Assembly (NCBI GenBank): GCA_020137815.1 | Contig: CM035356.1 | Location: 5,890,001 to 5,954,000 of the forward strand | Length of the DNA: 64,000 nucleotides | Direction of reading: 5' to 3' | Source of the DNA: Hormiphora californensis | Taxonomy: Eukaryota > Animalia > Ctenophora | Shown: one piece after another, positions 1-64,000 of the stretch | Layout: the number at the start of each line of letters is the position of its first letter | Position numbering within the stretch: position 1 is the first letter of the stretch | Position numbers and translations under genes: made by a program | Notes under the pieces: model-generated | Told to the model about the DNA's origin: nothing | The model's input: the letters and a program-made list of their open reading frames with translations, nothing else | Database searches by the model: none

Positions 1-1285
1 TCCTCCATTCGTCGATAGATTTTCTCAACCTTCCCTTTAAAAGCTCCCATGAAGGTGTCAGCAAGCTTGCCTTTTTCAATGTTCCCAGGCATGACTTCAA
101 CATTTTCCCTCCCCAGAAGGTGGTTCGAAGTTTGCCAAGTAGCCCGAGGGTCATGCTGTTGTTCTTCGAGACGAGCCGCGAAGTAGTTTTCTCTTACTCC
201 AGTCAGGATTTTATCAGTTTCCTTCTCCTGTGCTTTACAGTCCTCAAAGAAGTTGAGTATCACAACGGGGTCTGTTTTGGTCCGAAGAATTGCCCTATAT
301 TTCCTTTCTTTCCTCCTTCTTTCCCTTCTTGCCCCTTGGCAGATCTCATAGTTCTGTGTGAACCATTTATTACTGCGAGTTTTAACCTTCCTAGTAACCA
401 CGGGCGCCCGACTATCCATAAACCCCGTCAACACCGAGATATACAGCTCAACACACTGGTCCAGGTCATCAGGTAACTCATCACAAAGATCCGACTGAAG
501 AATGTCTTCCCTAAGATCCTCAATGTCAAGGTCTTTCATTTTTCGGCTTGTAACTAGCTTAAACTCACTGTTAGAACTACAGCCAGCCACATTTAGAGAG
601 AAGCTCACTAGTGAATGATCAGGAAGAGCAGGTGCCCTATAAGTTTCCAGTCCGTCCAACGCCGTAAGGTCTGCATCCCTGGTTAGTACCAAATCAAGTG
701 TGCCACCCCTCACATGCGTAGGCCCGATAACATGTTGAGACCATCCCTCCGACAGAATAAGCGCTTTAAACTTCTGTGTGAATCGGTCAGTATCATCTTG
801 GAATCTAACATTAAAGTCGCCCATGACAACAGGAACGCCGCCCTTTGATACAAAGGAATTTAGATAGCTGCCAAACTCAGTTATGAAGTGAGTATAGTCA
901 TTCCCCGTGCGATAGATAACAGCAAGCCGGACTCCAACACTGCCCTTCACGAAGATCTCCAGACATTCAAAAGACTTAGTGGATGTTTTACACGTAGTAA
1001 ACTTGATCTTATTCCGAATAATGAACGCCACTCCACCCCCTCGCTTCCCTTTCCTCGGTGCATTAACCAGAGTGTGCCTCCAATCCCCCACCTCCGCCGC
1101 CAGTGAAGATTCATCTAAGTTAAGCCACGTTTCAGTAAGAGCTAGAATCCCAAGTCCATTTTCGACCATCATTCCCATGACCTGATTAACCTTGTTCCGC
1201 AAGGAGAAACAGTTGCCAAGTCCAACCTTAATGGTCCTGCACCCTACCTTCCCTAAATCAGTCACACGCCCATCTTCACCAACTA
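1..1285 (-). CDS. LINE ORF2 N-terminus, apurinic-like (APE) endonuclease domain (partial; not in ORF track because no stop falls inside the window)
   Basis: Manual translation gives IKVGLGNCFSLRNK, LALTETWL, RGGGVAF, VIYR, VMGDFN, PTHVRGGTLDLVL and SDH, the ordered APE motifs of non-LTR elements. Confidence 0.88.
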
Positions 1286-2401
1286 GTTTTTTGCATTCCT
1301 TAGTTTAAGAAGGAAAACAGGACAGTCAGGCGAACCGGCATTGTGTGAGTTGGCATTACCCTTCAGCTTAGGGTCACTGGCATTTTTACAGTTAGTGCAA
1401 CACACTCTCCCCCTGTTCTTACAATCCTTTGTCTTGTGGCCTTCCGCACAGAACATACATGTAGCCTGTGGTTGCTCGCATTCCCACGCTTTGTGGCCAA
1501 ATTTCTGGCAACGGTAGCACTGTGGAATATAGTACCGATCTTCCACCCTACAGGAAACATTTCTAACGAAAAGTTTTCCTCCCTTTACCAACAAGTCCCG
1601 AAGAGCGCAAGAAACTCTCAACCCCACGTTAACCCGTTCTCTCGCTCTCGATTTCCCAACATAGACAACCTCCAAAGTATGCCCCTGGTCTATTAGAGAG
1701 CTCACCTTAGAGTTCTTCATCCGAATCATCTCAACTATGGCACTATCCAAATCACTCCGGCCCATATCAACTGGAAATTCTTCCACGGGAAGTGGAAAGT
1801 CCTTAACCGTAACCTTAGGCAGTTTAATAGATGTCTTATAGGTCGCTGCCTCGGGAAGAACTGCCTTAAGCTGACTCTCAGCAGATTGAAGCATGTCCTG
1901 ATCAGGTAAGGCAATTATTACATCGCCATTGGCCTCCGCCCTCATGAAGGACACAGGTGTCTCCTTTAGAGCCTCAGAAGCTCGTTTTACAGCCGTATCT
2001 CCCGCATTACTAATCGTAATTTTTGCAGCAGGTTTCTTAAGAACTTCAGCAAATGACCCACCGAGATTCTCACCAAGACTCGCCCTTAACCCCACTCCAT
2101 CACCCCGACGTAAGTCCATTTCTCCAACAAGTTTTTCTACTATGAAATCAGCGTGCTTACCAAGCTCACTCACAACACATCGAGCAATCTCCTCTCCACT
2201 AGCCCCGGTCTGCCCAAACCCCTTAGCCTTCCCGCTATCCACCGAATCAAAACACGGGGGGCATAGCCAGCATAATCCCACGAGTTTACTTACTTCGACG
2301 GGTACGGGCGGATCAGCATCATCTCGCTCCTCTTTGCACATCAAACATACCATCTTCTCTGTAACTGCTATCTCTGCAGCCGCCTTTCTCGTTATTGTCA
2401 T
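1283..2401 (-). CDS. LINE ORF1, gag-like nucleic-acid-binding protein with C-terminal CCHC zinc knuckles
   Basis: 372 aa; knuckles CYRCQKFGHKAWEC, CMFCAEGHKTKDC, CTNC...SHNAGSPDC; N-terminal CLMC/CWLCPPC cluster. Confidence 0.9.
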   Translation of the reverse strand: MTITRKAAAEIAVTEKMVCLMCKEERDDADPPVPVEVSKLVGLCWLCPPCFDSVDSGKAKGFGQTGASGEEIARCVVSELGKHADFIVEKLVGEMDLRRGDGVGLRASLGENLGGSFAEVLKKPAAKITISNAGDTAVKRASEALKETPVSFMRAEANGDVIIALPDQDMLQSAESQLKAVLPEAATYKTSIKLPKVTVKDFPLPVEEFPVDMGRSDLDSAIVEMIRMKNSKVSSLIDQGHTLEVVYVGKSRARERVNVGLRVSCALRDLLVKGGKLFVRNVSCRVEDRYYIPQCYRCQKFGHKAWECEQPQATCMFCAEGHKTKDCKNRGRVCCTNCKNASDPKLKGNANSHNAGSPDCPVFLLKLRNAKN

Positions 2402-2436
2402 CGTCTAGATGGGGAATTGAGGTGCCTCACGACAAC

Positions 2437-2477
2437 CTCAAATTAATTTGTTTAAAGTAGTGTTGAAAAGTTTGAAA
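2437..2477 (-). other. Spliced-leader exon sequence, genomic copy 1 (41 nt)
   Basis: Minus strand TTTCAAACTTTTCAACACTACTTTAAACAAATTAATTTGAG, identical to the copies at 62060-62103 and 62272-62315; matches my recollection of the ctenophore SL. Confidence 0.85.
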
Positions 2478-4355: not shown

Positions 4356-16026
<11,671 letters not shown>

Positions 16027-42601: not shown

Positions 42602-44312
42602 TCAAAGTACCCTCTTAGTTTGAGAAAATGGTTTCTTGGTTGAACAGGGCCAGTTTGAATCCTCGGTATTCAACCAGTGGTTCCTTGCCATTGTAGCCAA
42701 GGTCCCATCGTTTACCAGCGCCTCCTTTAGGTTTTCCGTCTCCACCGATGTCATGAAATTACACGCGTACTCAGGGCTGATACACCGGCTCAGAGCCTCC
42801 GATAGAAAGGCCATGGTTTCCTTATCGTAGAGAGAAAAATTGAAATTCTCCAAGATGTAATCTCGAAGTGGGAGTGAGTGACCGAGGTCCAGAAATGTGA
42901 TTAGATTTTGCACGAACGTTGAGTGTAGCTCAAATTGAACAGCTAGTGCCATCAACAAATCCATTTCGGGACGTTTTGAAGTGGCTGCTAACAATCGGGG
43001 AATCTTGAATTGAAAGGCGGTTTTGTTTTCTGGAACACTCGAGAAAATATGTGTTAAGAATTTATCATCGCCAAACTTAACCGAGCAATCCAAGGCCAGC
43101 AGGGCACATTCCCAGTAACCAGTGAATTCATCCAATGATTTAGGAAGTTGTTGTTTGAAGAAAACAAGACATCCCTCCTTGGCCCAGTCAACTTTAAACA
43201 CAGCCACCATCTTGAGAAAATCACCGAATACCTTGAACTCGGTGGAGTCAACCAGCTTGTCAAGCCTCCCTGTGTAACAAGCATCAACGAATATTCGGAC
43301 GGATTCAGGTTCAAAATCAGAAACATCATGATCTAGCTCCCCCACTTCCTCAATTAGATTCTTCAAGACAGGAGAGTTACGGGACAGAACATAGGAGTTC
43401 AGAGAGATGTTAGTGCTATCGCTCAGAACAAAGCTGTTGTTTCCATGGGCAGGGAGGGACAGATACTCTTTACCAAAGTCTATCCCGGCTGGTTTTTCAA
43501 TAGCCGGCGAATTCACGGAGACTGAGCTAGTTCCCGAATTTGTCGCTGCTGGTTCTTGTTCGCAGGGAGAGCTGTGCATGTGGTCTATAATGATAAAAGT
43601 TACCAAAACAGATGCTCCGCCTCCAACGCTATTTTTCGGTAGTTTGAAATCAATATACTCTCCCAGGAGTTTACATTGCTTCAGAGTTGGGTTCTGCCTC
43701 ACCAGTATTAACACAGATTCATCCAAATTCTCTATTATGCCTGTTTCTGGGCTATAGCCGTTCACTTTAAACTTCAAGTGTCGAGGTCCACGCCTTTTCA
43801 CTTCGACTTTCCAGCTTTTCCCGAATTTTTCAAGGAATATTTCATTTAAAGCAGGCACACCAGTGAGGTTTATGGTTCGGCTGAAAACAACCGTGCTTTT
43901 CTCGTCCTGCATAATCTGTTGAACATGTGCCTCGCCCAAGTTACATTGAGTGATGACAGCAGATACGGTTATCTTTATTTCATTTTCCCCGCTATCTTTC
44001 ATGAAGTTCTGCCATCCATGTCCATATCCAGATCCGTTGTATTTCTTGCCAGTATAGGTGTGATTTTTCACTCCTCTTGGTGATACCATGTTCCATCGAG
44101 AAGTCTGTACTGCAACTCCAATTCTTAGTAGCGTTAACAGGTTTAATATGAAGAGAAGCATCGATAAAGTCTTTACCACGAGTTTTACTAACACATACGC
44201 TCCAAAAGAATCCGTGAAACAGCCGCCAATCGCTGAACAATCGCTCATGATCTTCAAGCTGTCTGTTGCGTGGTATAGAGATTAAAAACTCCGCTGAAAA
44301 CTGTTTTGCCAT
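42602..44312 (-). CDS. Intronless MATH-like + BTB protein, copy 1 (one +1 frameshift near 44065)
   Basis: ORFs 43992-44312 and 42602-44257 together match the 570-aa copy 2; one extra base lies in or near a T run. Confidence 0.75.
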
Positions 44313-46764: not shown

Positions 46765-48477
46765 TCAAAGTACCCTCTTAGTTTGAGAAAATGGTTTCTT
46801 GGTTGAACAGGGCCAGTTTGAATCCTCGGTATTCAGCCAGTGGTTCCTTGCCATTGTAGCCAAGGTCCCATCTTTTACCAGCGCCTCCTTTAGGTTTTCC
46901 GTCTCCAACGATGTCATGAAATTACACGCGTACTCAGGGCTGATACACCGGCTCAGAGCCTCCGATAGAAAGGCCATGGTTTCCTTATCGTAGAGAGAAA
47001 AGTTGAAATTCTCCAAGATGTAATCTCGAAGTGGTAAAGTGCAGCCGAGGTCCAGAATTGAAATCAGATGTTGTACGAACGTTGAGTGTAGCTCAAATTG
47101 AACAGCTAGTGCCATCAGCAAATCCATTTCGGGACGTTTTGAAGTGACTGCTAACAATCGGGGAATCTTGAATTGAAAGGCGGTTTTGTTTTCTGGAACA
47201 CTCGAGAAAATATGTGTTAAGAATTTATCATCGCCAAACTTAACCGAGCAATCTAAGGCCAGCAGGGCACATTCCCAGTAACCAGTGAATTCATCCAATG
47301 ATTTAGGAAGTTGTTGTTTGAAGAAAACAAGACATCCCTCCTTGGCCCAGTCAACTTTAAACACAGCCACCATCTTGAGAAAATCACCGAATACCTTGAA
47401 CTCGGTGGAGTCAACCAGCTTGTCAAGCCTCCCTGTGTAACAAGCATCAACGAATATTCGGACGGATTCAGGTTCAAAATCAGAAACATCATGATCTAGC
47501 TCCCCAACTTCCTCAATTAGATTCTTCAGGACAGGAGAGTTACGGGACAGAACATAGGAGTTCAGAGAGATGTTAGTGCTATCGCTCAGAACAAAGCTGT
47601 TGTTTCCATGGGCAGGGAGGGACAGATACTCTTTACCAAAGTCTATCCCGGCTGGTTTTTCAATGGCCGGCGAATTCACGGAGGCTAGGTTAGTTCCCGA
47701 ATTTGTCGCTGCTGGTTCTCGTTCGCAGGGAGAGCTGTGCATGTGGTCTATAATGATAAAAGTGACCAAAACAGATGCTCCGCCTCCAACGCTATTTTTC
47801 GGTAGTTTGAAATCAATATACTCTCCCAGGAGTTTACATTGCTTCAGAGTTGGGTTCTGTCTCACCAGTATTAACACAGATTCATCCAAATTCTCTATCA
47901 TGCCTGTTTCTGGGCTATAGCCGTTCACTTTAAACTTCAAGTGTCGAGGTCCACGCCTTTTCACTTCGACTATCCATCTTCTCCCGAATTTTTCAAGGAA
48001 TATTTCATTTAAAGCAGGCACACCAGTGAGGTTTATGGTTTGGCTGAAAACAACCGTGCTTTTCTCGTCCTGCACGATCTGTTGAACAGGTACCTCGCCC
48101 AAGTTACATTGAGTGATGTCAGCAGATACGGTTATCTTTATTTCATTTTCCCCGCTATCCTTCATAAAGTTCTCCCAACCGCATCCAGATCCAGATCCGT
48201 CGTATTTGTGGCCAGTATAGGTGAATTTCGTGCTCTTCTTGGTGATTCCATGTTCCAGCGAGAAGTCTATATTGCAACTCCAATTCTTATTAGCGTTAAC
48301 AGGTTTAATTATATGAAGAAGAGCTTTGAGAAATTCGTTACCACGAGTTTTACTAACAGATACGCCCCAAAAGAATCCGTGAAACAGCCGCCAATCGCTG
48401 AAAAATCGCTCATGATCTTGAAGCTGTCTGTTGCGTGGTATAGAGATTAAAAACTCAGCGGAAAACCTTTTTGCCAT
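46765..48477 (-). CDS. Intronless MATH-like + BTB protein, copy 2 (intact, 570 aa)
   Basis: N-terminal MATH-like pattern (FHGFFWGVSV...LLHI...NWSC...GCGWENF); BTB pattern (SFVLSDSTNISLNSYVLSRNSPVLKNLI...VSDFEPESVRIFVDACYTG). Confidence 0.78.
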   Translation of the reverse strand: MAKRFSAEFLISIPRNRQLQDHERFFSDWRLFHGFFWGVSVSKTRGNEFLKALLHIIKPVNANKNWSCNIDFSLEHGITKKSTKFTYTGHKYDGSGSGCGWENFMKDSGENEIKITVSADITQCNLGEVPVQQIVQDEKSTVVFSQTINLTGVPALNEIFLEKFGRRWIVEVKRRGPRHLKFKVNGYSPETGMIENLDESVLILVRQNPTLKQCKLLGEYIDFKLPKNSVGGGASVLVTFIIIDHMHSSPCEREPAATNSGTNLASVNSPAIEKPAGIDFGKEYLSLPAHGNNSFVLSDSTNISLNSYVLSRNSPVLKNLIEEVGELDHDVSDFEPESVRIFVDACYTGRLDKLVDSTEFKVFGDFLKMVAVFKVDWAKEGCLVFFKQQLPKSLDEFTGYWECALLALDCSVKFGDDKFLTHIFSSVPENKTAFQFKIPRLLAVTSKRPEMDLLMALAVQFELHSTFVQHLISILDLGCTLPLRDYILENFNFSLYDKETMAFLSEALSRCISPEYACNFMTSLETENLKEALVKDGTLATMARNHWLNTEDSNWPCSTKKPFSQTKRVL

Positions 48478-49069
48478 GTTCGTTCCTTTGGGGGAGTTAA
48501 TAATAAGTTAGTAATACTAACTTAGTATTTATGTTATTATATAGTGTGTAGACAGGTAAAATAAACAAGGGTAAGAAAATATAAACTCTGAATTAATCGA
48601 GTCCTGGTGGGTGGAACGGAATACTTCTTCATAAATACTTCTCCTTGTATTGTGCTCCATCATTCCATCGTGGCTTACATAGTGGCTTACATAGTTAGCT
48701 GTGTCTAATTCTTTGTCGTTCACAACTCACGAGTTATGGGATGAAATTCAAGCGGACGATAACTCAAACTCGAATATTTCGAACTGGAACAGGGAACTCA
48801 CTTTTGAAAATTATTAGGCGATTTATAGTCTGGGTCTGGTGATTTCAGATTTTCTGTCCGCCCCACTATTCGGGTTGGCGTGATCTAAGTAACAATAACA
48901 ATAACAATAACAATAACAATAACATTTAACATTTATAAATCGCTTTTGAGCGAAAAGTGTTTATCTTGATCGACTTATACTAAAGCGTCCTTTCGATCAA
49001 AACTCGCTTTCTAAAGCGAGTTAATAGTTAATAAGTTAATTAAAATAGTTAACAATAAACTGTCACATA

Positions 49070-53908: not shown

Positions 53909-54790
53909 TTGCCCATTGTAGTCTTACAACAACCCCCCCCCCCACCCGTATCTATGCCCCCCTCTCACTCTTTGTCTCTCCATGTCGGGGTAAAGAATAC
54001 GGAGGTTGGAATAGTGGTAGAGCGCTGGTGATAAACATCAAGGGAAATCCCGCTGAATAACATGTAGAATCAGGCGATAAAGATCCGTAGAATTGTAGCT
54101 GTGTAGAGAATCAACGGGGTACGTAGGTAGAAAGGCTTTGGTAATCATGGGGGTCCCAGCAGTAGATCCCAAAACACCAACAAACAACAGCCACAGGAAC
54201 ACGCAACAAACAACCAATAACATGCACGTGCAGTATCCCCCCTCCAATACCCCTCCCAACCCACCTCCCAGGGCAACCCCCACCATTTGCACGTGTGGAT
54301 AGGTCACCATCCTCATCACGACGTTCATTTGTACTTTATAATAAGGACTAGAAAGCCCATTGAGATCCCACAACACCCCCCCCCCCCCCCGTCTCTATGT
54401 CTCTCCCCCTCTTACTCTTTGTCTCTCCATGTCGGGGTAAAGAATACGGAGGTTGGTAGAGTGGTAGAGCGCTGGTGATAAACATCAAGTAAAATTCCGC
54501 TGAATAACATGTAGAATCAGGTGATAAAGATCCGTAGAATTGTAGCTGTGTGTAGAGAATCAACGGGGTACGTAGGTAGAAAGGCTTTGGCAATCATGGC
54601 AGCTCCAGTAGTAGATCCCAAAACACCACAGGAACAACACAGGAACACGAAACAAACAAACAATAGAATGCACGTGCAGTATCCCCCTCCAATACCCCTC
54701 CCAAGCCACCTCCCTTGGCAACCCCCCACCATTTGCACGTGATGATAGGTCATACTCATCACGCCACGCATTTGTACTTTATAATAAGGA
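53909..54790 (-). mobile_element. Tandem dimer of type-B non-autonomous Helitron
   Basis: Reverse-complement homolog of 49370-49867; A|TC start, internal CTAG|TC junction at 54347/54348; removal between A and T restores LINE frame GRLLNKRKTKSIGLRAD. Confidence 0.8.
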
Positions 54791-56599
54791 TTAAGCAGGC
54801 GACCACTAAGATAGTCGGGTGCAAGTCCGTTTAAGCATTTGAATACCAGAACACAGGTTTTATACTCAATTCGCTCAGAGACCGGGAGGAAATGAAGCTC
54901 CTTCCGTAGCTGGGTCGTACCTCGCCAACGCCTCTGGCCATAGATGAAACGTGATGCGGCATTTTGGATCTTTTGAAGCTCTTGTCGGTTCTTCTTTGTC
55001 ATTCCGGTCATCAGGGAGTTACAGTAATCCATTTTGGAGTGGATCAAGCCGCAGACTAGTAATGTTCTTAGTCTTCGCGACAACTTCCCGGCGATTCTCC
55101 ATAAATTAACCAGAGTGGACTTACATGCATTGACCACCTTCAACACATGTTCATCCATGGAGAGTTTAGAGTCAAAGTACACCCCCAGATTCCTTGCCGA
55201 GTTCGTGACCACAGTGGGTGTGCCCTCTTTGAACAGCTGTACTGAGTCTACAGAGGTACTTCCTCTGGGAGATAGGATCATAACTTCAGTCTTTGTAGGG
55301 TTCAGTTGGAGAAAATTAGTCGTGAGCCAGGCCTGTATATCCGAAACGCAGGCCTGTAACTTCTGTTCAATATCAGAGAAGTCATCCGCTGAATATGCAG
55401 CGTACACCTGGGTATCATCTGCGTAAAAATGAATACCTACTCCGTGTTTCTCAGCAATTAGTTCCAGCTCCTTCGTGTAGCATATGAACAGAATAGGACC
55501 CAGAATCTATCCCTGAGGCACTCCAATAGTCAAATCAGTAAAAGCCGATTTCAACTCACCCACCATCACAGAAGCACCCCTACCCGTAAGGTAACTCCGG
55601 AACCAGTCAAGAGAGGTATCACTGACACCATATAGCTGCTCCAATCGTTTGAGGAGTGTCGAGTGGTTCACCGTATCGAAAGCCGCACTCAAGTCTAATA
55701 ACAGGAGCACCACCTTCGATCTTTCGTCCGTCAGTGTTAGCAAATCGTCAAATATGCGTAGGGTGGCAGTTTCACAGCTTTTATGCTGTCTATATGCAGA
55801 TTGATGTCTCGATAGAAGGTTGTTATCCTCTAGATGCTTGACGAACTGATCAGCTGCACACTTTTCAATGAGCTTGCCAAGGAATGGTAGGTTGCTGACA
55901 GGTCTGTAGTTACCCAGATCATCGGCGTCAAGATCTGACTTCTTAATCAAAGGACGAATAAGAGCAGTTTTCAAAGCAGTAGGGAATTTACCAGATAATA
56001 GGCTGTCGTTCACTATCTTAGATAGGACCGGGAGCCTCCCGGCGGGAGGAGTTCTCCAAATAATCGTCTGACAAAAGAAGTGGGTATAGGATCCAGCTCG
56101 CAATGTTTCGTGCCCATCTCCATAATGGTCGATCTTAAGACTGTATCAGACACCGGTTGAAATTTGAATGATGGCACTCGCGGTGCATTTGGAGATTGAG
56201 TTAGGTAGTACACCTACTTACGTTTCCGTTCTCCTGTTCTTGTTGAGATTCGGGATGAGAGTGTCTTCAAGACTTTGTGAAATTCATTAGCTATCCCACC
56301 CGCTGTATTCATGACCAATGGAGAAAATGTCCCTCCTTCAACTTCTCGAACCCGTTTACCGTATGATTGCAACGTTTTTAAAGCATTTTTTATTGGCCTA
56401 TGCTACAGGCCCGTAAGAAGAAGCCTAGCCATGGAAAACGTGCGCACTTGGGGTCTGCAGCGCATGCCAACATTTTTAAAAATGAAGGAAACAAAATTGG
56501 AAATCCCAAACCTGCAGGTAAAGTTTTTGGGGGGGGGGGGTAAAAGTTAAAAATTATACATAAAAATGAGTTTACATGTTCTGTAGTAATAAATAAGTT

Positions 56600-57162
56600 A
56601 AAAATTATCGGTGTTAAACCTCGTCATGTATAATAAATTATAATCAGTTTCTTCTGTTACTCTCGTTACTTTCGTCCCACGAAAACCTCGGCGGCTAACA
56701 ATAATAGTTTTTAGGAGACTGAATGAGAGGCGTTGACGAATGTAACGGATTGAATCACTATAGGACTGTTTAGTTTTCAGAGAAATCAATCTCGCAACCT
56801 GGGCATAAAACTGATAGGGATGCGTTGCTCGGTGCCAGCGAGTTAAAGACCCGGATGTCACACAATGACTTCACATTGGGGGACCAGACTCCTGTCGCAC
56901 CAACATCCAGTCGGGCATCGTTCGCTGTGATTGCCGACTTGTATTGGAATACTTCCCCTGTGAGTGGTAACAGAGGGGGCTCTATCTGGATATTCTTGCA
57001 TCTCGTCATTTTAAGGAAGTTGGCAGTTAGATCACGAATATAATTATGTCGTAGATAGACGTATCCCCCCAGTGGACAGGACAGACAATGCTCTATATCG
57101 TTAATATGTCCACATGCACAGTTCATAGGTATTCCTTTCATGGGTAGAAGATACCTCAGGGC
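56600..57162 (-). mobile_element. CRE-like non-LTR retrotransposon 3' fragment (CCHC + restriction-like endonuclease)
   Basis: LRYLLP...CACG...IEHCLSCPLGG...RHNYIRD...EPPLLPL...DARLDVGATGVW...DIRVFN; frameshifted downstream. Confidence 0.75.
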
Positions 57163-57167
57163 TAACC

Positions 57168-57577
57168 TGAATTTTCTGCTTGTATTCCTGCAACCCTGGT
57201 GATACTTCATCCTCCGGCAACTCTCCATCATAGAAATAAAGGACATCATCTTCGAATGCTGGAAAAGTAAAAGTGAATACAGTCAGACCTCGATTTACCG
57301 GGATGAAAAACTTCCCCCGATATAAGAAATTGGCAGTATCTGACCCTGATACACCCCGATATACCGGGCAAAACCCTTTCCCCCGAGCATTTTCATTTAA
57401 CAATTCATTCACGAAGTGGAGAATGATAGTTGAAAATGGTACCTTCGCTACGGAAAAGGGTGGGGAAGTACAACTGTTGTAATTCTGGACAGTCACCCCG
57501 TAGATCATCCATCATCTCCTCGATCATTTCAAAAACCTTCCAAAAACGGTACACAGCCATACGATAGACATTTCGAT
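57168..57577 (-). pseudogene. Heme oxygenase-like copy 3 remnant (exons 2-3 only)
   Basis: Matches copies 1 and 2; exon 1 is deleted at a junction near 57615 and the 3' exons are replaced by the CRE-like fragment. Confidence 0.8.
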
Positions 57578-57720: not shown

Positions 57721-59432
57721 TCAAAGTACCCTCTTAGTTTGAGAAAATGGTTTCTTGGTTGAACAGGGCCAGTTTGAATCCTCGGCATTCAACCAGTGGT
57801 TCCTTGCCATTGTAGCCAAGGTCCCATCGTTTACCAGCGCTTCCTTTAGGTTTTCTGTTTTCACTGATTTCATGAAATTACACGCATACTCAGGGCCGAT
57901 GCACTGACTCAGAGCCTCCGATAGAAAGGCCATGGTTTCCTTATCGTAGAGAGAAAAGTTGAAATTCTCCAAGATGTAATCTCGAAGTGGGAGTGAGTGA
58001 CCGAGGTCCAGAAATGTGATTAGATTTTGCACGAACGTAGAGTGTAGCTCAAATTGAACAGCCAGTGCCATTAACAAATCCATTTCGGGACGTTTTGAAG
58101 TGACTGCTAACAATCGGGATATCTTGAATTGAAAGGCGGTTTTGTTTTCTGGAACACTCGAGAAAATTATATGTGTTAAGAACTTATCATCGCCAAACTT
58201 AACCGAGCAATCCAAGGCCAGCAGGGCACATTCCCAGTAACCAGTGAATTCATCCAATGATTTAGGAAGTTGTTGTTTGAAGAAAACAAGACATCCCTCC
58301 TTGGCCCAGTCAACTTTAAACACAGCCACCATCTTGAGAAAATCACCGAATACCTTGAACTCGGTGGAGTCAACCAGCTTGTCAAGCCTCCCTGTGTAAC
58401 AAGCATCAACGAATATTCGGACGGATTCAGGTTCAAAATCAGAAACATCATGATCTAGCTCCCCCACTTCCTCAATTAGATTCTTCAAGACAGGAGAGTT
58501 ACGGGACAGAACATAGGAGTTCAGAGAGATGTTAGTGCTATCGCTCAGAACAAAGCTGTTGTTTCCATGGGCAGGGAGGGACAGATACTCTTTACCAAAG
58601 TCTATCCCGGCTGGTTTTTCAATGGCCGGCGAATTCACGGAGGCTAGGTTAGTTCCCGAATTTGTCGCTGCTGGTTCTCGTTCGCAGGGAGAGCTGTGAA
58701 TGTGGTCTATAATGATAAAAGTTACCAAAACAGATGCTTCGCCTCCAACGCTATTTTTCGGTAGTTTGAAATCAATATACTCTCCCAGGAGTTTACATTG
58801 CTTCAGAGTTGGGTTCTGTCTCACCAGTATTAACACAGATTCATCCAAATTCTCTATCATGCCTGTTTCTGGGCTATAACCGTTCACTTTAAACTTCAAG
58901 TGTCGAGGTCCACGCCTTTTCACTTCGACTTTCCAGCTTTTCCCGAATTTTTCAAGGAATATTTCATTTAAAGCAGGCACACCAGTGAGGTTTATGGTTC
59001 GGCTGAAAACAACCGTGCTTTTCTCGTCCTGCACAATCTGTTGAACAGGTACCTCGCCCAAGTTACATTGAGTGATGTCAGCAGATACGGTTATCTTTAT
59101 TTCATTTTCCCCGCTATCCTTCATGAAGTTCTCCCAACCGCATCCATATCCAGATCCGTCGTATTTGTGGCCATTATAGGTGTATTGTTTACTCCTCTTG
59201 GTGATACCATGTTCCAGCGAAAAGTCTGTACTGCAACTCCAATTCTTATTAGCGTTAACAGGTCTAATTTGAAGACAAGCTTTGAGAAAGTCTTTACCAC
59301 GAGTTTTAATAACACTTACGCCCCAAATGAATCCGTGAAACAGCCGCCAATCGCTGGCAAATTGCTCATGATCTTGAAGCTGTCTGTTGCGTGGTATAGA
59401 GATTAAAAACTCAGCGGAAAACTGTTTGCCAT
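57721..59432 (-). CDS. Intronless MATH-like + BTB protein, copy 3 (1-nt deletion just after the ATG)
   Basis: The frame is open back to QFSAEFLISIPRN; ATGGCAAACAG versus ATGGCAAAACAG in copy 1. Confidence 0.75.
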
Positions 59433-59643
59433 GTTCGTTCCTTTAGGGGAGTTAATGATAAGTTAGTAATACTAATTTAGTATCTATGTTATTATATAGT
59501 GTGTAGAAAGGTAAACTTAATAATATAAACAAGGGTAAGAAAATATAAACTTTGAATTAATCGAGTCCTCGAGGGTGGAACTGAAGTGTTTTCTCTCGCT
59601 TCTTACACTGAATTACAGCTGCCACATTACAATTTACAGAATA

Positions 59644-59835: not shown

Positions 59836-60379
59836 CATGCCACGTCTTCTGTTGGAGCCAAAGCTGCCACGTTGTGCTCATCAATCCCAATAAATAATAA
59901 TAATAAGAATTACCTTGGCATGCGCTGCAGACCCCTAGGGCCTAATGCGCACGTTTTTGACGGCTTTGTAACTTTGTAATTTTTTTTCTTCCAATATTGG
60001 ATCCGGCAGCGTAGCCCAACTGCCAAAGAATTGCTGTATGGTGAAACCAGTTACCAGGTTACAATATGTATCAAGAAAACTACAAAACTTGTAATTTATG
60101 TATTTAATATATCACTCAATAGTGAAAATTTGCACTGATCGAACAAAAAAAGATTTTGCAGTTCACAATTCACGAGTTATGGAATGAAATTCAAGTGGAC
60201 GATAACTCGAACTCATTTCTGGGTCTGGTGATTTCAGATTTTCTGCCCGCCCCGCTATTCGGGGTGGCGTGATCTAAGTACACCTACTTACGTTTTTGCA
60301 ACGTGTTTGCAGTATTTAAAAAAGATGAATATAAATACGTGTAGACATTTAACAATGATAAAAACTGTAATAAATTAAA

Positions 60380-60852
60380 TATAAAATGAGTCTATTGCCC
60401 CACTTGATATAGCTGCTCGTCCCTGTTGCCCTCGCCCCTCAATCTACCCCGATGCCCCCTGATGGAAACAGTTATTGATCGCACCATGGCGAAAGATAGT
60501 CTGAGTCAAAGATAACGGATGCATTGGTCGTAGGTGTATCCCGTTTTCTTAGCTTTCTTATCGGCTAGCTGTTTCAGTGTCTTTTTGAATTCCCGACCGA
60601 GACCCCCCGTCGTGGACATTACCAGAGGTGTAAATGACGATTTTTCCACTTCAATGACCCGATGAAGGTAGCCAGTCTTTTTCTCCCTCTCATGTTTTTC
60701 ATACACTTTAGAGATTGCCTGGTTAGAGTTGGATGCCACCCTAGGATTAAATACCCTCACATCAAAATAGGTGTTATCCATGCTAGACCAGAAATCACGT
60801 GTACTGATATCTAGGCGAGCTCCATCCGCCGTAATAGTTCCCTCTGGGAGAC
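60380..60852 (-). mobile_element. Second, divergent CRE-like 3' fragment (restriction-like endonuclease)
   Basis: GARLDISTRDFW...YFDVRVFNP...YEKHEREKKTGY...IEVEKSSFTPLVMSTTGGLG. Confidence 0.75.
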
Positions 60853-61022
60853 TCATCATCATCATCATCAATTAACATTTAATATACCGCTTTATAGCAT
60901 ATTGGTAAGATATCACTTAAAAAAGAAAAAACTTAACGGATACCTTCCTGCTTTCAAAAGCGGTTTTACTCTATTTGATCAATAAATTAGAGTCCATGAG
61001 CTAGTAGTGTTTATACAAATGT

Positions 61023-62015
61023 TCAAGTGTCCCTTGGTGCTTCTAACACCCTCTTTCCACGGATTATGAAGTGGGTTCCAGGGGACTGCTTTACCTTCTC
61101 CTTCAGTTCAACAACAAGCTTTTTCCGTTCATTCCGTTCTTCTACTGTTCTATCAGGAGATATAAAGACTTTGCCAAACTTGTCGTTCCCTTTCAGCAGG
61201 GATTTCTTCGACAGGATTGAAAGTTGAGCTTCTCTGCTCCTCAGCACAACTTTCACAGGTCTTGCCGATGAGGACTGCTTTCCCAAGCGCTCGGCAGATT
61301 GCACTTTCGGAGCCTCTTCAAGCTCACCAAAAAGAGACTTGATTTGAGTTTCAAGCTTATCACCATTTACATTGTCTTTCAACTCTTCCAATCCATGGAT
61401 GATGATGTTACACCCACGGTCCTCCGATGCTGCCACGATTGCCGATTGAATCTTCTTTGGAGCCAGGGCCGAGGCACACTCCTTCTCCAAAACGGCTGCA
61501 AAGCTCTTCATTTCCTGTTGTGCTGTTGACTGCACAGCTGTTATCTCAACCTCCCTCTTCTCAAGTAATTGCCTCTGGATTTTTAGGAGCTCCTCTTGTG
61601 CAGCTACTAGATTTCTTTGGGTTTTTATGAGCTCTGTACTGTGTATTTTGAGCTCTTTCTCCAGCTGGTTTATCCTCAAGGTTTCGCAACCAACTGCTAA
61701 CAACTCTTCAGTAACTGGGAAGGTCTGTTCCATAAGAATACGGCATGCATCCTCCACAAGGTCTAAAAGCACTGGCTTGGTCAGTGCATTGAGTTTGGTC
61801 CTGGAGGGGACCTTCAGATCATTCCAAACTTCCGCTGTCTGTGGTCCGTACTGCTGCACTCTGTTCGGGTTTATTTCACCGAACCCACCGGTTAGGGTTA
61901 ATACCTCGCTTACCCACTCCACGGTTTGTTCTTGACAGTATCGGACGTGTTCTTCTTCCACATCTGTTTCCCGCAGGTAGGTCCGTGTATCAAGTTCATC
62001 ATCAGAGCTTTCCAT
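61023..62015 (-). CDS. LINE ORF1p-like protein (coiled coil + RRM-like + C-terminal domain), 330 aa
   Basis: Heptad region followed by DRGCNIIIHGLEE...AERLGK...RPVKVVL...VFISPDRTVEERNERKKL...FIIRG. Confidence 0.8.
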   Translation of the reverse strand: MESSDDELDTRTYLRETDVEEEHVRYCQEQTVEWVSEVLTLTGGFGEINPNRVQQYGPQTAEVWNDLKVPSRTKLNALTKPVLLDLVEDACRILMEQTFPVTEELLAVGCETLRINQLEKELKIHSTELIKTQRNLVAAQEELLKIQRQLLEKREVEITAVQSTAQQEMKSFAAVLEKECASALAPKKIQSAIVAASEDRGCNIIIHGLEELKDNVNGDKLETQIKSLFGELEEAPKVQSAERLGKQSSSARPVKVVLRSREAQLSILSKKSLLKGNDKFGKVFISPDRTVEERNERKKLVVELKEKVKQSPGTHFIIRGKRVLEAPRDT

Positions 62016-62059
62016 CTTCTTGCTGCCCTCTTGGGCTCTTACATAGACATTTGCTGAAA

Positions 62060-62103
62060 CTCAAATTAATTTGTTTAAAGTAGTGTTGAAAAGTTTGAAA
62101 CTC
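62060..62103 (-). other. Spliced-leader exon sequence, genomic copy 2 (44 nt)
   Basis: GAGTTTCAAACTTTTCAACACTACTTTAAACAAATTAATTTGAG on the minus strand. Confidence 0.85.
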
Positions 62104-62271
62104 ATTCCTCGTACATTTAGCAAATGGGGTTTTTAAAAAATGAAGGAAAGAAAATCTGTTTATGAGGCCCCTCGGAAATGTTCAAGTCATGCACAATCAA
62201 GTCACGCCCACCAATCACAGCTCAGAACGCGCGAAGCAGTCCGCGCGTTCTGAGCTGTGATTGGTGGGCGT

Positions 62272-62315
62272 GAGTTTCAAACTTTTCAACACTACTTTAA
62301 ACAAATTAATTTGAG
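62272..62315 (+). other. Spliced-leader exon sequence, genomic copy 3 (44 nt)
   Basis: Identical to copy 2. Confidence 0.85.
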
Positions 62316-62344
62316 CAGGTAGATATGGTGATGTGATAGCCCCT

Positions 62345-63328
62345 ATGGGCAGACCGTACGATATGACAGTTATTCCAGTACGTCAAGAGGAGCTGACTCA
62401 GGCTGATTTGGATTGGTATGCGAGCCGGATCCTGACCATGGTCAAGTATGCAGGGATTCCTTCACCGGATTTAACCAGAAAGTTAGGGAGTAGCCCTGAG
62501 GATATCAGGGAAATACCGACATCTTTCAATATCCACTCATCCCACACGAAACGTGATTTGGCATCTGTGTTAGAAGATGTATTTATGTCGACCTTGCCAC
62601 TTCTTAAGTACTTCCAACATCGTTTCAACGTCGAGAAGTCGCCTGAGTTGGAATTAAAGGAAGAAAGAGATGAACTGTTGAGAAAGAGTTTGGAGTTGCA
62701 GAAAAAAGAGGAGATATTGAGAGTTGAGATGGATGACCTGTTGAGAAAGACTATTAGGTTACAAGAGCAGGTCATTGAGCTTCAGGACACTCAACTACAT
62801 CGAGTAACCGAAACAGTACAGAAAGATCTGCGCTCTTTCTCAACTGTCTTGACGCAGAATTGTAGGTCTGCTCTTGCACCGAAAAATATCAAGAAAGATG
62901 AAGGGAAAGCTCATGGCAAAAAAGTTGATTCGAGTCCAGATCCAGACAGATCCAAAAATCTGATGGTGTTTGGTCTACCGGAAGTTGAGGCAGAATCTGA
63001 ATCTGTGTTGAAATGCGAGATAGAGAATGTTTTGGCTGAGCTTGATGAGAAACCTATTGTTGTAGCTAAAAGGGTGGGTTTGAAACGGGAAGGAAGGGAG
63101 AGACCCGTGATCGTGAAGCTACAGAGTAGAGAAATGCTGCTGAGCCTTCTCCAGAAGGCTAGGCAGTTGAAACAGTCCGAATCGTACTGCGGTGTATACT
63201 TGTCAAGAGATATGTCACTCGCAGAGAGAACGGAGAGGAGGGAACTCCACCTTACATTGAAGGAGTTAAGGGAATCGAATCCCGAAAGACAATTTCGGAT
63301 ACGGAAAGGAGCGATAAACTTTTCATAG
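62345..63328 (+). CDS. LINE ORF1p-like protein, distant paralog of 61023-62015
   Basis: Coiled coil, TVQKDLRSFSTVL..NCRSALAPKNI, DRSKNLMVFGLPE...KRVG...RPVIVKL...VYLSRDMSLAERTERR...FRIRKG; first in-frame ATG at 62345. Confidence 0.8.
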   Translation: MGRPYDMTVIPVRQEELTQADLDWYASRILTMVKYAGIPSPDLTRKLGSSPEDIREIPTSFNIHSSHTKRDLASVLEDVFMSTLPLLKYFQHRFNVEKSPELELKEERDELLRKSLELQKKEEILRVEMDDLLRKTIRLQEQVIELQDTQLHRVTETVQKDLRSFSTVLTQNCRSALAPKNIKKDEGKAHGKKVDSSPDPDRSKNLMVFGLPEVEAESESVLKCEIENVLAELDEKPIVVAKRVGLKREGRERPVIVKLQSREMLLSLLQKARQLKQSESYCGVYLSRDMSLAERTERRELHLTLKELRESNPERQFRIRKGAINFS

Positions 63329-63599
63329 ACTATCTTTATAAACTGGACTCTTAAATGGACTCATATCTTTGATCAACCGTTTTTTGCCCACAAAAAGGGG
63401 CTGATAATTTGATACATCAAACTGTGTAAATTATTATATAGATTTAATAAATAAATAATAATGGTGGGCGTGACTTGATTGTGCATGACTTGAACATTTC
63501 CGAGGGGCCTCATGTTTTCGTGTCGGCCAGGAAAAATATCGCGCGCGAGAGCAAATTTTATGCGTCGCAAATAATGTAACGCGCGAACTGCAATGTCCT

Positions 63600-63750: not shown

Positions 63751-63754
63751 ATAT

Positions 63755-63983
63755 AGTCTGATTTTAAATAACTGTCGTTTTTACCGCACTCGATTTTGCT
63801 ATATTATGACAATATCTCCAGTTCCTGATAAGATAGAGACTTGAAATTTGGAGGTTAGGAAGAACTTAGCATGTTCTTCGCAACCCCCGAGTTTCAAGTC
63901 TTTATCTCATCAGGAACCGGAGTTATTGTAATAATAGAGCAAAATCGAGTGCGGTAAAAACGATAGTTATTTAAAATCAGACT
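63755..63983. mobile_element. Hairpin MITE with ~100-bp arms
   Basis: agtctgattttaaataact...agttatttaaaatcagact with imperfect inner arms. Confidence 0.7.
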
Positions 63984-64000
63984 TTATCCAGCTGAGAGAG

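Follow-up and report, generated by a model that had tools for sequence, protein, structure and literature searches.

The window, by which we mean the whole 64-kb stretch of Hormiphora californensis DNA analyzed here, contains two compact retroelements with the same layout, element C on the reverse strand and element B on the forward strand (Table 1). Both begin with a complete spliced leader (SL), carry one open reading frame (ORF1), and end in a short repeat tail. The preliminary description had placed C at these coordinates with this anatomy and had drawn B as an element of the same design with an equally intact frame, and all of this holds. Several other features lie elsewhere in the window. 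Three long ORFs form a young tandem gene family and contain a segment that we take to be BTB-like. A broken LINE encoding reverse transcriptase (RT) is presumably L2-like. Two different fragments of presumably CRE-like elements are 34% alike over 58 aa, and a G+C-rich satellite and a second palindrome are also present.

Table 1. Features of the window (positions within the 64-kb stretch)
Feature	Position	Strand	Remarks
Element C, about 1,250 bp	62103 to 60855	-	complete non-autonomous retroposon
C spliced leader, complete, 44 nt	62060-62103	-	5′ boundary of C; within the TSD; no GT donor after it
C leader motif	62023-62044	-	ATG-TAA start-stop, then GCCC-N4-GGGC hairpin; ORF1 ATG 7 nt downstream
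C ORF1, 330 aa	ATG 62015, stop 61023	-	frame without stop or shift
C ORF1 layout (predicted)	61023-62015	-	N-terminal helices, long coiled coil, RRM, C-terminal domain (structure model)
C 3′UTR, 153 nt	60870-61022	-	last ~100 nt conserved in L001; long stem possible
C (GAT)5 tail	60855-60869	-	sole run of (GAT)4 or more in the window; L001 ends alike
C TSD, left copy ACTCAT, 6 bp	60851-60856		overlaps tail
C TSD, right copy ACTCAT, 6 bp	62100-62105		overlaps first 4 nt of SL
C target, 3′ fragment of another non-LTR element	60330-60850	-	left boundary approximate; 5′ remainder at ~62106-62133
Element B, about 1,190 bp	62272-63461	+	SL-headed; ORF1, 3′UTR, (AATA/AAT)n tail
B spliced leader	62272-62315	+	identical to C leader
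B leader motif, start-stop and hairpin	62331-62352	+	same motif as C
B ORF1	ATG 62345 or 62363, to 63328	+	open frame of 337 aa stop to stop
B TSD, 12 bp	62262-62273 / 63462-63473		direct repeat flanking B
MITE-like palindromic repeat, 152 bp	62162-63513		split by B; 52-nt perfect inverted arms
Second palindrome, 237 bp	63751-63987		very high contig depth
Autonomous-looking LINE	1-2477	-	ORF1 2404-1283; APE-bearing ORF2 from 1304, exits the window
Third SL copy, 41 nt	2477-2437	-	precedes the autonomous-looking LINE
Three long ORFs	42602-44281, 46765-48507, 57721-59442	-	559-580 aa; DNA 94-96% alike
Broken RT-encoding LINE	54000-56145	-	3′-side region present twice in tandem, ~430 bp apart (by eye)
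Element fragment	56770-57282	-	aligns with the C target
G+C-rich satellite, ~1.7 kb	8556-10310		12-13-bp units

Insertion Sites and Element Boundaries

Element C bears hallmarks of retrotransposition: a tail, a target site duplication (TSD), and no introns. Joining its flanks with one TSD copy restores an uninterrupted frame, and the alignment of this frame with the fragment at 56770-57282 runs through the insertion site (34% identity, E 2e-8). We take the interrupted sequence to be a CRE-like restriction-endonuclease region; a Pfam search with this target fragment returned no match. B is inserted into a MITE-like palindrome whose empty form is 96% self-complementary, and for which Rfam gave sub-threshold miRNA-hairpin matches only. 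Empty sites can be reconstructed for both elements. In both, the SL lies within the duplication and is therefore part of the element, and because the DNA copy of C starts with the SL exactly at the TSD, it derives from an SL-bearing RNA. Both the tail of C and its first SL bases overlap target sequence. Such microhomology is typical of CR1/L2-type priming, and CR1/L2 elements typically end in microsatellites.

C has a 5′UTR of 44 nt between SL and ORF ATG and no ORF2 in the 153 nt from stop to tail. A composite of C and the LINE fragment downstream of it was rejected, as the fragment resumes in frame beyond C and a relative, locus L001, differs after the tail. The 3′UTR fold of C is a hint of structure, with a z-score of -2.40 (2/200 shuffles equally good) and of -1.23 in L001; these belong to a set of one modest and two weak scores, and covariation is not countable from two sequences.

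The ORF Encodes a Predicted LINE-Type ORF1p

The protein of C is a predicted LINE-type RNA chaperone. An AlphaFold2 model built from 23 sequences (mean pLDDT 78.9, pTM 0.37) shows N-terminal helices, a helix of ~70 residues, and two further domains, one RRM-like and the other small and C-terminal. In the Foldseek search, human LINE-1 ORF1p filled all of ranks 1-10 (E 2.6e-5 to 1.1e-3), at 16-20% identity and a TMq of 0.23-0.31, and the RRM alone matches 2w7a with a TMt of 0.70. PDB sequence and Pfam searches returned no ORF1 family and coiled-coil noise only (OmpH, below the cut-off). In a distant homologue (L005; 30%, E 4e-7), the next frame after ORF1 is an ORF2 bearing APE and RT, and the locus L006 adjoins broken ORF2 pieces downstream. 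Fold and context, in particular the position of the L005 homologue before an APE-RT ORF2, together identify the single ORF of C as homologous to LINE ORF1p.

Judged by their sequences, B and C are two families with several subfamilies each. Their proteins share 89/305 identities (29%, E 3e-27), and every motif that had been quoted as common to them is present in both. The N-termini had been called unalignable, which is true of the first 35-65 aa and untrue beyond, where BLASTP aligns the pair from about residue 34 of C and profiles align from about residue 65 with a probability of 100%. At the DNA level the blastn match is the 44-nt SL alone; beyond it the two share the 22-nt leader motif. In a quick IQ-TREE analysis of 36 rows, which left out P0001 and P0022 as near-identical and P0010, P0011, P0014, P0026, and P0032 as partial, support was 98 for the C clade, 98 for C with L003, and 99 for the B clade, with an open fork between B and C. 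FastTree on 136 rows of at least 250 aa gave the same picture and grouped P0015-P0017, the L004-type clade, with C at a support of 96, which the IQ-TREE analysis did not do. The pair had been offered as proof of a single family; separate well-supported clades, different tails, and the open fork in both trees speak against that use of it. The family of C is itself old and many-branched.

Relatives of C Are Multicopy and Lack ORF2

Protein searches recovered 21 relatives with the C ORF (10 of them metagenome proteins, these at 61-99% identity) and 16 with the B ORF, and relatives of C overall span 99 to 41% identity. A Pleurobrachia bachei gene model sits in one homologue cluster. We fetched six loci (L001-L006), of which the four closest to C, the only relatives whose DNA context is known, are ORF1-only: similarity to APE or RT follows the ORF1 stop in 0/6 cases (C, B, and L001-L004), and the control L005 was positive. 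L001 (65% aa identity to C) has a homologous 3′UTR over the last ~100 nt and a (GAT)n tail, its 5′ end being missing. L002 (63% before a frameshift near codon 250) retains 42 nt of SL followed by the leader motif, and its contig ends 106 nt past the stop. L003 (41%) is a whole ORF1-only relative (L003:1-1285) between (CT)n runs. It has a different tandem tail and is possibly microsatellite-targeted and outron-bearing. L004 is 5′-truncated, with a (GATT)n run ~360 nt past the stop.

Contig sizes point the same way. Contigs longer than 2 kb carry 1/18 of the C homologues, 1/14 of the B homologues, and 7/12 of the homologues of the ORF1 of the autonomous-looking LINE in the window, with medians of 1,310, 1,260, and 2,237 (Mann-Whitney p 3e-4; rows without size 3/21, 2/16, and 1/13); because the assemblies are not independent, the comparison is supporting only. 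Five C clusters list 50 members, eight of them on contigs >2 kb and one on a contig >3 kb. For two B clusters (11 listed members) the count above 2 kb is zero, and in ten further clusters all 44 listed members are on contigs <4.4 kb, 40 of them <2 kb. The three best Atlas clusters have no family name, and their commonest taxon is Ctenophora, on few records; with an E-value limit of 0.001, the wider ORF1 protein family comprises 17,088 representatives.

Read data agree that C belongs to a multicopy family amplified in its ORF1-only form. In DNA run X1, single contigs had a depth of 495 on C, 308-442 on B, and 38 on unique flank, which is a sign of multiple copies and not a copy number. Metagenome X8 covers pieces of C and B and none of the unique flank, and variant contigs span the C 3′UTR in two studies. 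RNA run X7 gave contigs on C (61815-61977 and 62007-62080) and B (62339-63269), plus adjoining repeats; since these contigs extend over neighboring repeats, they are not counted as expression. An autonomous partner LINE sharing the 3′ end of C was not found in the window, the six loci, or viral contigs. Viral and prokaryote collections, the wrong ones for such elements, gave no match to SL, ORF, or 3′ motif.

ORF1 Has Evolved under Purifying Selection

Nei-Gojobori dN/dS is 0.17 for C and L001, 0.25 for C and L002 (before the frameshift), and 0.18 for L001 and L002, at a dS of 1.1-2.0, near saturation. By region, the ratio is lowest in the coiled coil (0.07) and highest at the N-terminus (0.23). 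Among the best-supported 40 of 236 variant rows, 14/15 variant sites in the C ORF fall at third codon positions (p 2e-6). C and L001 have the ORF1-only 3′ end in common, which suggests that selection acted on the ORF1-only form, and since they retain the same 3′UTR end and tail at a dS of ~1.5, the ORF1-only layout is older than their split. The proposal that the ORF1-only lineage is old and has been subject to purifying selection is thereby supported, with ORF1-only relatives at 65, 63, and 41% identity. At no fetched locus did we see the pattern named as fatal to it, in which each ORF would be nearly identical to that of an autonomous LINE.

Spliced Leaders and a Leader Motif at the 5′ Ends

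The leaders of C and B are the one published for H. californensis, for which 718 genomic copies are described, with 491 in Mnemiopsis (PMC8527503). Together with the P. bachei gene model among the homologues, the leader most likely points to a pleurobrachiid host. Three copies occur in the window, each heading a retroelement: C, B, and the autonomous-looking LINE, whose ORF1 is different and cysteine-rich. SL heads are thus present on apparently full-length LINEs as well as on half-elements.

Downstream of the SL, C, B, and L002 share a second feature. At 15-17 nt past the leader comes an ATG with a stop as its very next codon; a GCCC-N4/5-GGGC hairpin of variable loop follows, and 7-10 nt later a start codon. 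Within the window the pattern occurs twice, once in C and once in B, and it is absent from 100 shuffles, a test in which it was scored on the very sequences from which it was derived. It matches one of the six fetched loci (L002); L001 starts inside the motif, with the hairpin part present, and neither L003 nor the autonomous-looking LINE of the window has it. Contigs from runs X1 and X8 carry the SL of B and the next 9 nt (62316-62324) and then a variant start-stop and hairpin motif, representing a further subfamily. The motif may tune ORF1 translation or mark the RNA for packaging, and its occurrence in both C and B hints at common descent.

The SL of C and B ends in GAG, a poor splice acceptor by general splicing rules, and in C, B, and L002 a YAG lies 3-6 nt downstream. 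None of the four SL heads contains a relic of an earlier leader, which makes splicing at the terminal AG of the SL probable; the GAG ending and the nearby YAG leave this trans-splicing step uncertain. The lack of relics fits reuse of the AG and equally fits dead-end copies of outron-bearing masters.

Discussion

We hold with good confidence that C is an SL-carrying non-autonomous retroposon with a single intact ORF1p-like ORF and a repeat tail, likely copied by the RT of an autonomous LINE. Full-length LINEs are the likely source of the enzyme that copies this family, and host trans-splicing, rather than a promoter of its own, likely sets the 5′ end of C. One possible cycle begins with a copy transcribed by read-through. 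Trans-splicing by the host, for which the terminal AG of the SL in the DNA copy is the probable acceptor, would restore a capped RNA with an exact 5′ end, and an internal promoter would therefore not be needed. Trimers of ORF1p would then bind in cis along the RNA that encodes them and assist in capturing the ORF2p of the partner, which could account for the purifying selection on the ORF. The conserved 3′ end would be what that ORF2p recognizes, and pairing of the (GAT)n tail with the nicked target would prime reverse transcription, a step for which tail-target microhomology and a 6-bp TSD are observed. B is a second family of the same design. More tentatively, the elements may represent an ancient, large ctenophore radiation of ORF1-only retroposons that lack a promoter, rebuild their 5′ end in each cycle by trans-splicing onto the AG of their own leader, and carry a conserved start-stop and hairpin switch before ORF1.

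It is also conceivable, although we would not expect it, that the SL-headed copies are dead ends. A few masters would then keep a promoter and outron, their RNA would acquire the leader as other mRNAs do, and the SL of the DNA copies would be only a footprint. L003 may be such a master, since this whole ORF1-only relative has a pyrimidine tract and AG and no SL, and the lack of relics fits as well. The leader is described on 56% of Iso-Seq reads, stated as at least 56% of mRNA reads, for a related species (PMC8527503), so any transcript may gain one. Weighing against dead ends, SLs head C, B, L002, and the autonomous-looking LINE alike; the leader motif keeps its distance of 15-17 nt in C, B, and L002; and among the contigs listed, none runs from C or B into common upstream DNA other than the SL.

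An improbable explanation is that autonomous LINEs gave rise to C and B recently and independently, through early-ended ORF1 transcripts or through internal deletions, and that only the parent was under selection. Mammals did evolve ORF1-only forms more than once (PMC5753468, which gives several origins), the trees do not join B and C as sisters, and one of the 50 listed C-cluster members is on a contig >3 kb. Yet the layout shared by C and L001 predates their split, all six ORFs lack a following ORF2, and the contig-size comparison with autonomous-LINE ORF1 also disfavors recent origins.

We consider it very unlikely that C is a domesticated host gene with processed copies, an L1TD1-like modulator of LINE particles. 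Purifying selection would be expected of such a gene, an SL before an intronless ORF looks like the retrocopy of a host mRNA, and mammals do have a domesticated ORF1 gene (PMC4161310). The many parallel intact subfamilies (61-99% identity), the family-specific microsatellite tails in place of poly(A), contigs that stop at element size, the location of the insertions within other repeats, and the multicopy signal of the read data all argue otherwise. The related suggestion that ORF1p persists as a host-beneficial modulator finds no support, since B and C are clean TSD insertions inside other repeats with many parallel subfamilies, as selfish elements are. Of the two functions initially proposed, chaperoning of its own RNA would be the better option, to judge from the modeled fold and the analogy with known ORF1p. 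Finally, NeSL and SLACS-type elements target SL genes, but such targeting, with the SL as flanking host DNA, is refuted for C and B, where the SL lies inside the TSD, the flanks rejoin into a MITE and a continuous LINE frame, no GT donor follows the SL as it would in an SL RNA gene, and Rfam gave no SL or snRNA match.

LINE derivatives that retain ORF1 only are already known, namely HAL1, Ag-Sponge, and HeT-A (PMC5786205, PMC5753468). HAL1 of mammals resembles C as a non-autonomous LINE derivative with ORF1p only, and the predicted fold of C is that of L1 ORF1p too. C differs in its ctenophore host, its SL 5′ end, and its family's (GAT)n or other microsatellite tails versus poly(A). C thus works like HAL1 but is not HAL1 proper, which is defined by the L1 clade, poly(A), and mammalian hosts. 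Ag-Sponge (CR1-derived) and HeT-A (Jockey-derived) are likewise non-autonomous members of bipartite LINE systems with ORF1 present, and their protein is proposed to multimerize with the proteins of the partner (PMC5786205). Unlike these, C has an SL head, for which the passages describing them give no counterpart, and C is not telomeric. SL-tagged retrogenes of dinoflagellates share with C an SL-headed DNA copy that marks reverse transcription of a trans-spliced RNA (PMC12014239). They are host genes that gain a 15-nt relic per cycle, whereas C is a mobile family with relics in 0/4 heads. L1TD1, also an ORF1-derived protein without ORF2 and under selection (PMC4161310), is a fixed host gene, in contrast to the multicopy C with its TSD, tail, and many subfamilies. 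For SL-headed or ORF1-only ctenophore retroposons we found no report in the open literature searched, PMC11184263 mentioning neither term, and Repbase or the supplements of ctenophore genome papers may already list these families. Three features appear to be new: the SL at the head of the element, the conservation of the leader motif, and a radiation in ctenophores that seems to be large.

If this reading is correct, many of the genomic leader copies counted in Hormiphora and Mnemiopsis would be heads of retroposons or LINEs rather than SL RNA genes, and many unannotated ctenophore "genes" of ~300 aa would be ORF1 proteins of this kind. Such ORFs occur among predicted host genes (EukProt models) without a Pfam family and can therefore inflate lists of lineage-specific genes. 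With an SL head, a LINE-type element would also have an alternative to promoters and ribozymes as a means of preserving its 5′ end. The question of why half-elements keep ORF1p has rested mostly on old mammalian HAL1 fossils and telomeric HeT-A. C and B, as intact and apparently recent insertions with many subfamilies in early-branching animals, would make it testable there.
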